Below are positions 53,293-61,962 of a stretch of 64,000 nt of DNA, piece after piece (position 1 is the stretch's first letter; every line of letters starts with the position of its first letter). The notes beneath the pieces were generated by a model, which did not search any database, had not been told where the DNA came from, and worked only from the letters and a program-made list of their open reading frames with translations. Source of the DNA: Minisyncoccota bacterium (GTDB lineage: Bacteria; Patescibacteriota; Minisyncoccia; Phycocordibacterales; UBA9973). The translations under genes and the position numbers were made by a program. The stretch spans positions 41,383 through 105,382 of the forward strand of contig JBAZSF010000001.1 of the NCBI GenBank assembly GCA_041662525.1. The letters run 5' to 3'.

Positions 53293-53375
53293 TTTTTACA
53301 GAAAAATTCAAAAAACTACTTTACGCCGAGCTTGCTCTAGCATGAAGTTATCCACATCCATATTCTCTACTTTAC

Positions 53376-53404
53376 TTGACTAAAGTACTTTACTTTGATA
53401 AAGT
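53376..53404 (+). promoter_or_regulatory. promoter TTGACT-17-TAAAGT with a 10-bp palindrome AAAGTACTTT in the spacer and flanking ACTTTAC/GTAAAGT inverted repeats (candidate autoregulatory operator)
   Basis: ctactttacttgactaaagtactttactttgataaagtag; -10 ends 6 nt before the ATG of the TrpR-like gene (leaderless). Confidence 0.45.
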
Positions 53405-53410
53405 AGCTGT

Positions 53411-53806
53411 ATGAGTAAAGGAATGAATAAAAATACATCAATCAATACAGTTAAACTAATCCAAGAAATTGGACCAAAAATGAATTGGGGTGACAAAAAA
53501 AATAGGCAATTTGTTGAAGCTATTTTAACTTTAAAAAACACAAATGAAACTGAGCGTTTTCTGCGTGACTTGATGACTGAAAGTGAAATAAAAGAATTTG
53601 CTAATCGCCTAGAAGCTGCTCGCCTGCTCTCAATAGATATTCAATATAATGCAATTATTGAGAGCACTGGTCTTTCTTCTGCGACTATCGCTCGAATAGC
53701 AAAATGGTTAAAAGGTTCACTAGGTGGATATCGTTTAATTTTATCTCGTTTATCAAATCACCATCACAACTCTTCCAAACTTAGGAAAGGGTTGCTTTTA
53801 AGCTGA
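53411..53806 (+). CDS. TrpR-like protein, YerC/YecD family
   Basis: FLRDLMTESEIKEFANRLEAARLL...STGLSSATIARIAKWLKGSLGGY matches the YerC/YecD (Trp-repressor-like) fold family. Confidence 0.75.
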   Translation: MSKGMNKNTSINTVKLIQEIGPKMNWGDKKNRQFVEAILTLKNTNETERFLRDLMTESEIKEFANRLEAARLLSIDIQYNAIIESTGLSSATIARIAKWLKGSLGGYRLILSRLSNHHHNSSKLRKGLLLS

Positions 53807-53836
53807 TAATATTTTTGTAAATTATTTTTTGAAACT

Positions 53837-53878
53837 AACCCCTTCCTAAGTTTGTTTAGGAAGGGGTTTTGCGTTTTC
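53837..53878 (+). terminator. rho-independent terminator
   Basis: aaccccttcctaa-gtttgt-ttaggaaggggtt then ttgcgtttt. Confidence 0.8.
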
Positions 53879-53939
53879 CTTTGAAACGCCATGGTTGCCC
53901 TCCATTAGGGGTAAATTTGTTCTTTGAAAGGAGAAAATT

Positions 53940-54113
53940 ATGGATGGTCGTATTTGGTGTCCTAATTGTCGTAAGTTGAATTTCGTTAAAATTTTAAAAC
54001 GAATGACAACAGAAGAAGGTGAAGAAATTTTTATTTTTAAAACAAAAACAATTAAAACAAAATACAAATGCACTACGTGTAAACACAAATGGACTGACAT
54101 AGAAAAATTTTAG
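53940..54113 (+). CDS. small zinc-ribbon protein (57 aa), not on the ORF track
   Basis: SD GGAG 8 nt upstream; MDGRIWCPNCRKL...KYKCTTCKHKWTD has two CxxC pairs; own terminator downstream. Confidence 0.45.
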   Translation: MDGRIWCPNCRKLNFVKILKRMTTEEGEEIFIFKTKTIKTKYKCTTCKHKWTDIEKF

Positions 54114-54137
54114 CATCGCGTCTCATAAGCGCAACAA

Positions 54138-54177
54138 AAGGGCTGCTCGTAAACGAGCAGCCCTTTACTATTTTTAT
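54138..54177. terminator. terminator hairpin (bidirectional position)
   Basis: aaagggctgctcg-taaa-cgagcagcccttt followed by actattttta. Confidence 0.75.
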
Positions 54178-57828: not shown

Positions 57829-57893
57829 TACAAAAGTATTTTATCATAAGGATAAATAAAACAAAAACTTGCAAAAATACCGACGAGGACTTG

Positions 57894-57919
57894 ACCCCGT
57901 CGCTCGCGAGCGATGGGGT
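57894..57919. repeat. 26-nt GC-rich palindrome ACCCCGTCGCTCG-CGAGCGATGGGGT upstream of prs
   Basis: 13-bp stem with one G-U position; abuts a TTGACT -35 box. Confidence 0.5.
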
Positions 57920-58104
57920 TGACTTAAAAAAATTTTCATATATTATATTCTTAATGCAATCAAATATAGGTTTTAACAATTATTTCTTCTTTTTTAGCTT
58001 CTGGACCAAAGGTTCCAGAGTTCATTTCTGATATTGTTAAAATCATTCTAAACAAACATAACAATACAAGAAACGAGCCCTGGAACGGGCTCGTTTCTCT
58101 TTTC
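57919..58104 (+). promoter_or_regulatory. candidate promoter (TTGACT-16-TATTAT), ~150-nt leader with internal hairpin, and intrinsic terminator (58071-58104) upstream of the tandem paralog genes: attenuator-like leader or small RNA
   Basis: Terminator aaacgagccc-tggaa-cgggctcgttt + ctctttt. Upstream GGTTCCAG (58011) can pair with the CTGGAAC in the terminator (possible antiterminator). Confidence 0.35.
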
Positions 58105-58184: not shown

Positions 58185-58613
58185 ATGACTCAAAAAGAAA
58201 AACAAAAAATAGTTTTTCGTAGTCTTCATGTGAATTTTGGCGACATGGTCGTCACTATTCACGAAATGAGTAGAGGGGGTGTCCTCTACTATTTTTTCAA
58301 CAATTTCGGAAGGTTTAAAGAAATATCTTTTCCGTCAGAAGAAGAGGTAGAGGAATTTTGTCAGGAACACCCTGATAAATTAGCTCCTAAGCTTTTTTCA
58401 ACCTTTTTTCTGTGCAAAAGAGAAAAAAGGTTTATCGTTATTAGGGTGGTAGTAAAAGATTTCCAAAAAATTGATCTGGAGGAGATTTCTCTAAGATCAA
58501 AGGAAGAATGGAGCCCTTGGCATAGGGTGGTAGTAGTGGTGCCACCAAAGAAATCTACAAAACAACAAACAGCTGTATTAGTAGCTACAAAAAACAAAGG
58601 GGGTAGTAAATAA
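58185..58613 (+). CDS. hypothetical protein (142 aa), tandem paralog A
   Basis: Strong SD AAAGGAG; shares FC-x-(E/D)HP(D/N)KLA, FFLCK and EWSP(W/L)H(R/W)VVVV(V/L)PP with the next gene. Confidence 0.5.
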   Translation: MTQKEKQKIVFRSLHVNFGDMVVTIHEMSRGGVLYYFFNNFGRFKEISFPSEEEVEEFCQEHPDKLAPKLFSTFFLCKREKRFIVIRVVVKDFQKIDLEEISLRSKEEWSPWHRVVVVVPPKKSTKQQTAVLVATKNKGGSK

Positions 58614-58614
58614 A

Positions 58615-59061
58615 ATGAAGAAAAAAGATAATTTTTATTTTTCAAAGGTAGGGTCGTTACTTGCAGTTAGAAAAAATAGCGTGCTTCGTAAAGCATACGA
58701 GAATTTATTCAACAGAAGTCCGCAAGTTATTTTTCGTGACCAGCATGTAGCTGGTTACGAAATGAGAGAAAGAGGCACTCTCGAAAATTTTTTCTCTAGC
58801 CTTGATCTCGGAAAAATTGAAAACCTTTGTTTCGAATTACGAAGCGAGATTGACGATTTTTGTCGAGACCACCCCAACAAATTGGCGAGGAATCGTCGTT
58901 ACACTTTTTTCCTCTGCAAAGAGGGGGGAAGTATAACAGTCATTCGCATCTGCGTGAATGACTACTCAGAACTCATTATTGATGAGTTTCCTATAAATTA
59001 TGGACTTGAGTGGAGTCCGTTGCATTGGGTGGTTGTTGTATTACCGCCCGAAAAGAAATAG
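58615..59061 (+). CDS. hypothetical protein (148 aa), tandem paralog B
   Basis: Starts 1 nt after the paralog A stop; same motif set. Confidence 0.5.
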   Translation: MKKKDNFYFSKVGSLLAVRKNSVLRKAYENLFNRSPQVIFRDQHVAGYEMRERGTLENFFSSLDLGKIENLCFELRSEIDDFCRDHPNKLARNRRYTFFLCKEGGSITVIRICVNDYSELIIDEFPINYGLEWSPLHWVVVVLPPEKK

Positions 59062-61131: not shown

Positions 61132-61190
61132 ATTAAAAATTAGTTATTAATAATTTAAGCCAGCAGTGGTCCTCTCGGGCACTGCTGGCT
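61132..61190 (-). terminator. intrinsic terminator / attenuator hairpin immediately upstream of trpB
   Basis: Minus-strand agccagcagtg-(11)-cactgctggct, an 11-bp perfect stem, followed by a U-rich tract (ttaaattattaataactaattttt). Confidence 0.65.
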
Positions 61191-61198
61191 AACATCGA

Positions 61199-61414
61199 TC
61201 ACAACCCTATTATGCTACCCCAGCCATCTCTGGGACGCTCTATTGTCATACGAGTCTGTGGTTCTTTGTCCAAAGATTCACGTATGACCAAAGAGATATT
61301 GCATGTTTTGCAAAAACCCAACCAAACCTTAGGCATATCCTCAATAAAGACAACTCTGCTCTTACATTTTGGACATATTTTTACCGGAAGTTGAATTCTT
61401 TCTTCAAGCAACAT
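61199..61414 (-). CDS. small zinc-ribbon protein (71 aa) encoded in the trpB leader
   Basis: SD AAAGGAGG; ICPKCKSR...FCKTCNIS has two CxxC pairs. Confidence 0.45.
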   Translation of the reverse strand: MLLEERIQLPVKICPKCKSRVVFIEDMPKVWLGFCKTCNISLVIRESLDKEPQTRMTIERPRDGWGSIIGL

Positions 61415-61665
61415 AAAGACCTCCTTTCAAAGAACAAAATCAGCGCTTTTTATTGCGCTGTTTAATGGATTGCTTTTTTAGATTATATATAAAAGAAATC
61501 AACAGAATAGCGCAAAAACGTTTACCTTTGCGCCCCACCAAGAATTTAATTTATAAATTTCTTGTTTTTTATTTTGTTGATTTTTACTCAATATCATCAT
61601 ACTAGTATGCTAGTATATATAAAAAATAAAAGCAAGTATATAAATAATATAACTGTGGAAAACTT
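61415..61665 (-). promoter_or_regulatory. trp leader region: candidate promoter overlapped by palindrome ATACTAGTAT-gc-TAGTATAT (61598-61618), then two hairpins with U-rich tails before the leader ORF
   Basis: ACTAGT core as in the E. coli trp operator; hairpins gcgcaaa-(10)-tttgcgc and cagcgc-aataaaaa-gcgctg on the minus strand. Confidence 0.45.
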
Positions 61666-61962
61666 TTATTTCAAAACTTTTAAAGCTCGTCTGAGCCCTC
61701 CTTCTTTTTTGCGCATTTCACGAGATCCACGAGTAACTGTTGCTACTCCTAAATGTAAAGCTTCAGCGATAGCCTGATGATGCTCCCCTTCTGCTAGGCG
61801 CTTTACTATTTGCCACCTTACTCCAATATTATCGAACTCTCTCGGTGTTAAAATATCTTTCACAAAATCACCCAAAAGAGCTTTATCTTTGGAGATTTTA
61901 TGAATCACTTCAATTACTTCTTTTTTATATTGTTCTGAATTATTTTTCATACTAGTATACAT
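61666..61962 (-). CDS. TrpR-like protein, YerC/YecD family (second copy)
   Basis: ILTPREFDNIGVRWQIVKRLAEGEHHQAIAEALHLGVATVTRGSRE: HTH of the YerC/YecD family. The start overlaps the trpS end, and that overlap contains ATACTAGTATAC. Confidence 0.75.
   Translation of the reverse strand: MYTSMKNNSEQYKKEVIEVIHKISKDKALLGDFVKDILTPREFDNIGVRWQIVKRLAEGEHHQAIAEALHLGVATVTRGSREMRKKEGGLRRALKVLK

Follow-up and report, generated by a model that had tools for sequence, protein, structure and literature searches.

The subject of this work is a transcription unit, referred to here as the hisR unit, found in a 64,000-nucleotide stretch of DNA from a Minisyncoccota bacterium (NCBI GenBank assembly GCA_041662525.1, contig JBAZSF010000001.1, positions 41,383 to 105,382 of the forward strand). 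The whole stretch is called the window, and all coordinates are positions within it. The unit comprises hisR, a gene for a TrpR-family regulator, together with its promoter, a set of hairpins that begins inside the hisR coding sequence (CDS), and a gene for a 57-aa zinc-ribbon protein. CPR stands below for Candidate Phyla Radiation, SD for Shine-Dalgarno sequence and ORF for open reading frame. The features of the unit are as follows.

53348 to 53356, forward strand: DnaA-box-like element TTATCCACA, at about −63 to −55 of the hisR promoter (about −59), 19 nt upstream of the −35 hexamer.
53368 to 53387, no strand assigned: predicted HisR box 1, TACTTTA-CTTGAC-TAAAGTA, with the −35 hexamer inside the box spacer.
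53376 to 53404, forward strand: sigma-70-type promoter, with TTGACT at 53376-53381, a 17-nt spacer and a TG-n-extended TAAAGT at 53399-53404.
53386 to 53405, no strand assigned: predicted HisR box 2, TACTTTA-CTTTGA-TAAAGTA, whose right half-site is the −10 hexamer.
53411 to 53806, forward strand: hisR, 131 aa, YerC/YecD family, with the CPR-specific C-terminal tail SNHHHNSSKLRKGLLLS.
53759 to 53767, forward strand: three histidine codons, CAC CAT CAC, ending 8 nt upstream of region A.
53776 to 53801, forward strand: region A, the final 26 nt of the hisR CDS complementary to region B, made up of the KLRKGLLL codons.
53829 to 53854, forward strand: region B, the terminator 5′ arm plus upstream bases, able to pair with A (antiterminator) or with C (terminator).
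53837 to 53878, forward strand: intrinsic terminator B:C, AACCCCTTCCTAA/TTAGGAAGGGGTT followed by a T tract, with a GC-rich hairpin of 13-14 bp at 53837-53868.
53895 to 53933, forward strand: second small hairpin, U-rich tract ATTTGTTCTTTG and SD AAGGAG, containing a 17-mer in common with the trp locus.
53940 to 54113, forward strand: gene for the 57-aa zinc ribbon (CPNC..CTTC), with AAGGAG 6 nt before its start.
54137 to 54166, no strand assigned: strong closing terminator hairpin, common to the ribbon unit and the convergent EamA gene.

The product of 53411-53806 is identified as a YerC/HisR-type repressor of the TrpR family. It carries the Trp_repressor domain (PF01371, expectation value (E) 2.8e-18, 66 bits against a cutoff of 27) and scores 69.2 bits with the yecD_yerC model TIGR02531, whose cutoff is 42.2, but just 20.7 bits with the TrpR model. 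The closest solved structures are 3FRW, 3KOR and 3G1C (E 5e-11 to 1e-9), and TrpR of Escherichia coli is absent from the four chains that match at E ≤ 0.01. About 1000 homologues of the protein are found in Paceibacterota, the CPR group (here a Nomurabacteria-like member) to which NCBI and JGI assign the proteins identical or nearly identical to those of the window. The family is known chiefly from a study by the Rodionov group (BMC Genomics 2022, PMC9413887), in which YerC of Bacillus subtilis is HisR, a TrpR-family histidine repressor, and 3G1C is the HisR structure used. The operator defined there is a 20-bp palindrome with the consensus cacTTTAnnnnnnTAAAgtg (cacTTTA-N6-TAAAgtg), and binding of HisR to the tested Ruminococcus gnavus site, CAGTTTAGTATAGTAAAGT, required histidine. 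Autoregulation was found to be common: in about half of the HisR genomes, hisR has such a site in its own upstream region. Patescibacteria were not covered in that paper, and the term appears nowhere in its text; by analogy with R. gnavus HisR, the window protein presumably binds DNA in a histidine-dependent manner.

An earlier note on this DNA had reported a palindrome in the −35/−10 spacer of the gene, and AAAGTACTTT does lie there (53382-53391, in the 17-nt spacer), as a single exact copy in the window. The inverted copies ACTTTAC and GTAAAGT that the note saw on its flanks are also real; they are better read, with the palindrome, as two overlapping 20-bp inverted repeats of the form TACTTTA-N6-TAAAGTA, set in an 18-nt register. 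The idea that this is the operator of an autorepressor is upheld by the exact match of both boxes to the published HisR operator core and by the frequency with which such sites precede hisR (PMC9413887). In the window, only these two sites match the HisR box with fewer than two mismatches; weaker matches occur at chance level, and a box scan of all 64 kb gave no further HisR boxes beyond chance.

Scanning one genome per species yielded 49 loci with relatives of the hisR protein, cited below by numbers of the form L001. In 36 loci, the 38-bp double-box core retains 92-100% identity per position where protein identity is 57-87%, and by these figures its conservation is far beyond chance. The hisR ATG lies 6 nt past the −10 hexamer, and this distance of 6-7 nt is kept across loci, so the hisR mRNA is probably leaderless. 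In four loci (L008, L010, L016 and L021), an insertion of about 80 nt with a hairpin, CTTGTCCCGTA...TACGGGACAAG, stands between the hisR promoter and the ATG and would turn the otherwise leaderless transcript into a leadered one. Additionally, a second 38-bp double HisR box was observed 2-3 kb downstream of hisR in eight other genomes (L001:7370, L010:6160, L014:6011, L016:3242, L021:5031, L022:7290, L027:6073 and L032:5934). It lies mostly between convergent genes, by the 3′ end of a pterin-4a-carbinolamine dehydratase / S51 peptidase / EamA operon, and in L014 it is upstream of a PNP_UDP phosphorylase gene; the window has no such second double box.

The 3′ end of hisR and the sequence behind it can form two mutually exclusive helices. 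The terminator that the earlier note placed after 53411-53806 is real in its hairpin and T tract, and would form half of an attenuator. The minimum-energy fold of 53745-53885 (−37.8 kcal/mol, z −4.25) holds the A:B helix and not the terminator, which forms once the coding part is masked in the fold, mimicking a translating ribosome. Of the 38 loci with a tail in which a terminator could be detected, 37 had the CDS 3′ end as the best of 90 sliding CDS windows at pairing with region B, with energies of −14 to −32 kcal/mol against means of −4 to −8 kcal/mol for the remaining windows. Covariation was assessed in a 34-genome alignment with 500 shuffles and slid controls. Helix A:B (24 pairs) is paired in 94% of cells, with double changes in 14 pairs (51 cells), and helix B:C (13 pairs) in 96.8%, with compensatory changes in 7 pairs; none of the 500 shuffles was as good for either helix, and the best slid controls reached 61% and 74%, respectively, although the paired percentages are inflated relative to these controls, since the structure was derived from the window sequence, a caution that speaks against our reading and leaves the compensatory changes unaffected. 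Two mutually exclusive helices that both show compensatory change are the signature of a switch. The A/B/C structure is supported by covariation, and an attenuator within the repressor CDS is well supported structurally; its function and mechanism as an attenuator are what we infer.

The codons in front of region A point to the signal. The 17-residue tail SNHHHNSSKLRKGLLLS (HHH..KLRKGL), part of which is encoded by region A as KLRKGLLL, is missing from Firmicutes HisR, and HH or HHH stands at the tail position in 117 of the 120 best homologues. The usual toeprint distance is about 16 nt, so a ribosome halted with the last histidine codon in the A site would extend just to the border of region A and leave it unmelted. 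Sequestration of the ribbon SD by pairing with 53874-53886 was considered as another element of control; by eye, this pairing is unconserved in L025 and L012, and the candidate was dropped.

We consider it likely, though well short of assured, that the hisR unit combines autorepression through the double operator with a histidine attenuator inside the 3′ end of the repressor's own gene. In the first, DNA-level layer, HisR would bind both boxes over the −35 hexamer, spacer and −10 hexamer of its own promoter and repress hisR, presumably with histidine as corepressor, as shown for R. gnavus HisR. In the second layer, the C-terminal tail of the repressor would itself play the part of a leader peptide. 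With His-tRNA in plentiful supply, the ribosome would pass over region A to the stop codon and A would stay single-stranded; with A occupied by the ribosome, B would pair with C and transcription would end after hisR. When His-tRNA is scarce, the ribosome would stall on the histidine codons, just abutting A, so that the A:B antiterminator would form and RNA polymerase would continue into the next gene. That gene is the 57-aa zinc ribbon in this genome and, elsewhere, hisI, hisG, a SLOG-family gene or other small ORFs.

Several points weigh against this proposal. The effector of the CPR HisR, its binding to the boxes, the coupling of transcription to translation and leaderless initiation are all inferred. 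Homologues of hisG, hisI, SLOG and phosphoribosyltransferase genes were not found in the 64-kb window by tblastn, and the controlled gene here, the 57-aa ribbon, is one without known function. Two or three histidine codons are few compared with seven in E. coli hisL. Moreover, five loci (L014, L021, L022, L026 and L027) and three database homologues keep the A:B:C arrangement with at most one histidine codon; with one or zero such codons, histidine sensing would not be the whole story there, and the switch could report hisR translation in general. The tryptophan attenuator described below shows compatible pairing, and its covariation is not significant with 7 loci. No Rfam family reached its gathering threshold at the hisR unit (the window scan returned tRNA only), and His_leader RF00514 was unmatched; a permissive Rfam scan gave weak matches of the hairpin type, among them a PyrR site (31 bits against a gathering score of 54), which were not accepted. 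Finally, HisR and His attenuators occur in separate lineages in PMC9413887, whereas here they are fused in one gene, so that the fusion is without a described precedent that we could find. To our knowledge, a repressor tail acting as leader peptide has no description in the literature searched, and no paper on attenuation in Patescibacteria turned up.

The conservation of the tail at the amino-acid level would also fit an account in which A:B is no switch. The HH..KLRKGL tail would then be kept for what it does in the protein, for example in binding a metal or ligand or as an arm that contacts DNA. The role of the helix would be limited to stabilising the hisR mRNA at its 3′ end, with termination constitutive, and a separate promoter would serve the ribbon gene. 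That some homologues have a single histidine codon agrees with this, and promoter-like hexamers, which occur near the shuffled expectation, can be found almost anywhere in AT-rich DNA. However, a stabilising hairpin need not compete with the 5′ arm of the terminator, and both exclusive helices covary; no conserved promoter is present between 53806 and 53940 in the aligned loci. Natural variants of the unit also argue against it. The tail and the terminator are lost jointly in L015 and L017, and in the distant lineages L040-L043 a different tail sequence still pairs with the local terminator in minimum-energy folds, with the window-rank test succeeding in L041 and L042 only. Locus L059 has no hisR; a free-standing, apparently leaderless 24-aa ORF, MNIFSKNLNHHHTNLLQGLVFVMH, is followed by a terminator and then by a homologue of the 57-aa ribbon. 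It thus retains the HHH peptide and terminator without a HisR domain, which indicates that the histidine run is not serving the repressor protein. We therefore regard the absence of a switch as unlikely. In the same locus, two direct repeats of GTAAATTTTTGCGAC were observed directly upstream of the −35 hexamer of the free-standing His-leader promoter (L059:2245-2290); they may be a different operator in a region that lacks hisR.

A second account retains the fold and the operator and changes the signal. The CPR protein would be HisR-like without sensing histidine, the attenuator would report general translation status, and the protein, responding to another ligand, would control genes of phosphoribosyl pyrophosphate (PRPP) and nucleotide salvage (SLOG-family, nucleoside phosphorylase, phosphoribosyltransferase-like and prs). 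CPR bacteria usually lack complete amino-acid pathways, and the N- and C-terminal extensions of the protein are missing from Firmicutes HisR. The genes found downstream of hisR also lean this way: SLOG cluster-4 genes in 9 loci, phosphoribosyltransferase-like genes in 8, prs in 5 and PNP_UDP genes in 4, against hisG in 4 and hisI in 2. Nevertheless, hisI or hisG follows hisR in L003, L004, L010, L012, L037, L043 and L057, and in L057 both are directly coupled to the unit, in the order hisR, ribbon, hisI, hisG. The operator is of the HisR type, the HH or HHH just before region A is near-universal, and the free-standing leader peptide of L059 keeps its HHH. A ligand other than histidine is, in our judgement, a doubtful reading of the unit.

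The gene placed under this proposed two-layer control was missed by the program-made ORF list and was recognised in the earlier note as a zinc-ribbon ORF with its own SD. It proves to be genuine: AAGGAG precedes the start by 6 nt, and the ratio of nonsynonymous to synonymous change (dN/dS) against the L025 orthologue is 0.20 at a dS of 0.78, which marks the ORF as a real gene. Four cysteines (C7, C10, C44 and C47), forming two CxxC knuckles, and one histidine are invariant in 7 aligned sequences, and the predicted model has four strands and is all-beta, at a predicted local distance difference test score (pLDDT) of 72. The family of this protein, called ribbon 1 below, is tiny, with 2 matches in 5.8 billion clustered proteins and 7 matches at E < 1e-3 in 1.84 billion representatives. 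Pfam and NCBIfam contain no family that reaches its cutoff for the 57-aa protein, and Foldseek with the model gave no match at E 0.001, the best neighbours being NrdR and ribosomal zinc ribbons.

In the window, L025 and L033, ribbon 1 lies directly behind the hisR attenuator. In L057 it is between hisR and hisI-hisG and overlaps hisI by 4 nt, and in L059 it follows the free-standing HHH leader. Ribbon-1 relatives therefore sit behind a His-codon attenuator in all five loci read closely; a probable further member, seen just as an ORF downstream of hisR in L020, probably does so too. A relative occurs in 4 of 48 hisR loci (L020, L025, L033 and L057). Judged by these contexts and this occurrence, the ribbon is sporadic cargo of histidine-attenuated units and not an obligate partner of the regulator. 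Another small-protein family (about 56-61 aa), with the pattern C-EKSPTGKH-W ... PRGDWG ... C-x2-C, was observed downstream of hisR in L005, L018, L019, L028 and L033, and the C-terminus ERPRDGWGS of a 71-aa ORF elsewhere in the window resembles its PRGDWG motif.

This 71-aa ORF belongs to a second locus, in which the following features lie.

61666 to 61950, reverse strand: TrpR-like repressor gene, 94 aa from ATG 61950, directly after trpS.
61598 to 61617, reverse strand: predicted TrpR-type operator TATACTAGCATACTAGTATG, overlapping the −10 hexamer (TAGCAT, 61612-61607) and the start of the leader ORF.
61499 to 61600, reverse strand: Trp leader peptide ORF, 33 aa, MMILSKNQQNKKQEIYKLNSWWGAKVNVFALFC, with tandem Trp codons at 61540-61535.
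61428 to 61534, reverse strand: Trp attenuator, with hairpin 1:2 at 61534-61509, the alternative 2:3, and terminator 3:4 at 61460-61441 followed by ATTTTGTTCTTTG.
61199 to 61414, reverse strand: 71-aa CPKC..CKTC ORF (ribbon 2), between the trp attenuator and trpB.

The earlier note had described here a second YerC-like gene (61666-61962) followed by the 71-aa ORF. Both exist, but the gene is identified as TrpR-like and not YerC-like. Homologues are 94-97 aa long, which makes ATG 61950 the probable start of the gene. The product has the Trp_repressor domain, and its best-scoring model is TrpR (TIGR01321, 43.3 bits), well above the yerC model (19.6 bits), yet short of the equivalog cutoff of 67.25. 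The best PDB matches are E. coli TrpR, with GVATVTRGS against GIATITRGS (the ATVTRGS motif) and a conserved TP..R..IV. The second operator of the note, ACTAGT, is present as well, but sits downstream of the TrpR-like gene, in the promoter of the Trp leader. The element ATACTAGTAT occurs in exactly two copies in the window, which flank the TrpR-like gene, and a third copy has one mismatch; its downstream copies compose TATACTAGCATACTAGTATG over the promoter TTGCTT-17-TAGCAT. At 12 of 16 specified positions, TATACTAGCATACTAGTATG matches the TrpR motif quoted in PMC9413887.

The Trp leader ORF, which the earlier note had overlooked, begins 6 nt after the −10 hexamer and is apparently leaderless. 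Behind it, the 3′ arm of the hairpin at 61534-61509 can pair with the 5′ arm of that at 61460-61441, which gives the classic four-region design. The CTAG operator of the TATACTAGCATACTAGTATG type is conserved in 7 loci (L050-L056); leader peptides with WW are found in L050, L052, L053, L054 and L056, while L051 has the short MGWSSLDDWWCLGL and L055 a single Trp. Pairing across these 7 loci stands at 81% for helices 1:2 and 2:3, and slid controls do not exceed 64%; helix 3:4 was left out of this count because its 3′ arm was misaligned by MAFFT. At 61428-61617 on the reverse strand, a complete E. coli-style trp control region is observed in a CPR genome, with conservation across L050-L056. Between the 71-aa ORF and trpB (61158-61190, reverse strand) there is also a perfect hairpin of 11 bp, AGCCAGCAGTG/CACTGCTGGCT, with no clear T tract. 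The proposed order of the unit is TrpR-like repressor, CTAG operator, leaderless leader peptide, attenuator, small ORF, trpB and trpA, and the second locus is a separate tryptophan system that follows the same logic as the his unit.

The resemblance between the two loci had been read in the earlier note as a duplicated two-gene module of a YerC-like regulator and a zinc ribbon. In favour of it, both regulators have the Trp_repressor domain, hairpins and then a small CxxC..CxxC ORF come after each of them, and the identical 17-mer TTGTTCTTTGAAAGGAG stands before both ribbons, its only two copies in the window; the relatives of ribbon 1 downstream of hisR in the four loci named above could also be counted in its favour. 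Alignment does not sustain the idea. The regulators are 28% identical over 65 aa and fall into different subfamilies, HisR/YerC and TrpR, and the two ribbons have nothing in common beyond CPxC (E 0.2-0.4). Clustering at the 90% level leaves ribbon 2 a singleton, and it has no counterpart in the 7 related trp loci, where its position is taken by unrelated ORFs or by none; only L056 has a small ribbon-like ORF there, with no detectable similarity to ribbon 2. The pairing also recurs rarely, with only 4 of 48 hisR loci carrying a ribbon. Elsewhere, TTGTTCTTTGAAAGGAG also precedes hisI, hisG and other genes, and as a special RNA element it was rejected, being a terminator U-tract plus SD that precedes unrelated genes too. 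A duplicated functional module whose copies diverged in operator specificity is therefore highly improbable and already largely refuted, because homology is lacking. What the two loci share, on the sequences compared here, is a regulatory design and not a gene pair: each combines a TrpR-family repressor with an operator that covers promoter hexamers, and each has a leaderless sensing ORF with cognate codons and then an attenuator with a small ORF behind it. The further suggestion of paralogous regulators with diverged specificity holds broadly, in that HisR/YerC and the TrpR-like protein are ancient paralogues, but these are old branches; their operator half-sites share a TACT core.

Upstream of both promoters lies an element that resembles a DnaA box. 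At hisR, TTATCCACA is a perfect 9-mer match and the sole perfect copy in the window, and a TTWTNCACA box occupies this place in 33 of 36 hisR promoters, with a displacement of roughly one helical turn in two loci. In the window, the trp-leader promoter has the box TTTTCCACA (61662-61654), 18 nt upstream of its −35 hexamer, and several related loci have one too. In 484 kb (the window and the loci), 112 relaxed matches were counted, 43 of them at hisR or trp-leader promoters; the number left over is close to that expected by chance, estimated at about 67. A third type of promoter, upstream of a small MKS.. ORF near prs, is preceded by four further strict boxes. This third type was observed at L054:4723, L055:1311, L034:7336 (reverse strand) and L051:4010; about 47 nt after the box, a small ORF begins with ATGAAAAGTT (MKSLRN, MKSLKH, MKSYRN or MKGFKN), and prs (PRPP synthetase) is found downstream of it in L054 and L055. 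The MKS.. ORF may be another leader peptide. In L006, L008, L034 and L046, a third HisR box overlaps the DnaA-box-like element (TAAAGTTATCCACA), and in the window an upstream box, CTACTTTAC (53317-53325), is apparently split from AAGTTATCCACA by a 20-nt insertion.

Similar to a DnaA box, the element is a perfect 9-mer at hisR, its variants TTTTCCACA and TTATGCACA fit the relaxed TTWTNCACA, and it holds a fixed, activator-like position near −59. Unlike a DnaA origin, it is a single box outside any cluster, and the window shows no evident dnaA gene or origin context. A claimed role of DnaA in E. coli his attenuation (PMC10989985) acts on RNA and not through a promoter box, and is only a lead. 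We suggest tentatively, and with a low expectation of being right, that TTATCCACA is a site for DnaA or another global factor that co-activates a small Paceibacterota regulon of leaderless promoters. Such a regulon would comprise the hisR unit, the trp leader-trpBA unit and the third promoter upstream of prs, all feeding PRPP-consuming pathways. HisR and TrpR would counteract the factor, HisR doing so in some genomes through the upstream box that overlaps the element.

Two other observations were made in the window. Upstream of prs, at 57844-57960 on the reverse strand, a 31-aa ORF (MKIFLSQPHRSRATGSS...) overlies the GC-rich hairpin CCCCATCGCTCGCGAGCGACGGGG, behind which comes a T tract; the region looks like a structured leader, and no Rfam family was found at these positions. 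Additionally, 58185-58613 and 58615-59061 encode adjacent paralogous proteins of 142 and 148 aa that have no Pfam match and share the motifs FC..HP.KLA...FFLCK and EWSP.H.VVVV.PP.KK.

Through the proposed control of the hisR unit, a specific role in regulation, a motif to bind and a probable signal would be assigned to a protein that is annotated merely as "YerC/YecD family TrpR-related", with its roughly 1000 relatives in genomes of organisms not yet growable alone. Repression plus attenuation of the kind known from E. coli is apparently present in this CPR lineage for both histidine and tryptophan. If the attenuator model is true, the tail of a functional regulator doubles as a leader peptide, an economical fusion of two control layers, and a rare zinc-ribbon protein is induced on histidine starvation. 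The conserved DnaA-box-like promoter element is flagged here as directly testable; were its suggested role true as well, it would form, together with the attenuator embedded in the CDS, a compact circuit linking replication or growth status to amino-acid and nucleotide supply in reduced genomes.

Known systems offer a parallel for most parts of the two units. With the zinc ribbons of the NrdR N-terminus and the ribosomal eL42 type, the 57-aa protein shares two CxxC knuckles. Superposition of its model on NrdR zinc ribbons gives 1.8-2.6 Å across about 52 columns and a template modelling (TM) score of 0.62-0.66 normalised to the query, in a match that is non-significant; unlike NrdR, it has no ATP-cone or any further domain. 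The trp unit is similar to E. coli trp (trpO and trpL) in that a repressor and an attenuator act on one unit and a CTAG operator overlaps the −10 hexamer, and to Chlamydia trachomatis trpRBA in that the repressor gene lies directly upstream of trpB-trpA with a regulatory intergenic region. In contrast to both, its regulator scores below the TrpR cutoff, trpR is co-oriented behind trpS, the trp promoter comes after trpR, and an extra small ORF is present.

The his unit shares with leader-peptide attenuators (E. coli and Salmonella hisL, the Firmicutes His attenuators, E. coli trpL) its cognate codons ahead of a mutually exclusive antiterminator and terminator, and the logic by which a stalled ribosome would allow readthrough. 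His attenuators of Firmicutes have 3-5 histidine codons. The hisR unit differs from all of these in having three regions (A, B and C), just 2-3 histidine codons and no match to the Rfam His_leader. Its sensing ORF is the full-length 131-aa regulator and not a dedicated short peptide; a short leader ORF of that kind is absent here and present at the trp locus (33 aa) and in L059 (24 aa). Both sensing ORFs, his and trp, also seem to be on leaderless transcripts, in contrast to known leader-peptide attenuators. With HisR/YerC as described in PMC9413887, the window protein has in common the family (TIGR02531), structures of the 3G1C/3FRW/3KOR type, the operator type ACTTTA-N6-TAAAGT and a site before hisR, and his genes adjoin hisR in some of its relatives. 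It departs from those proteins, which are shorter than 100 aa, in its length of 131 aa, to which the N-terminus contributes about 30 additional residues and the C-terminus 17, and in its setting, where two overlapping boxes in an 18-bp register coincide with the promoter hexamers and no his gene is found in the window.

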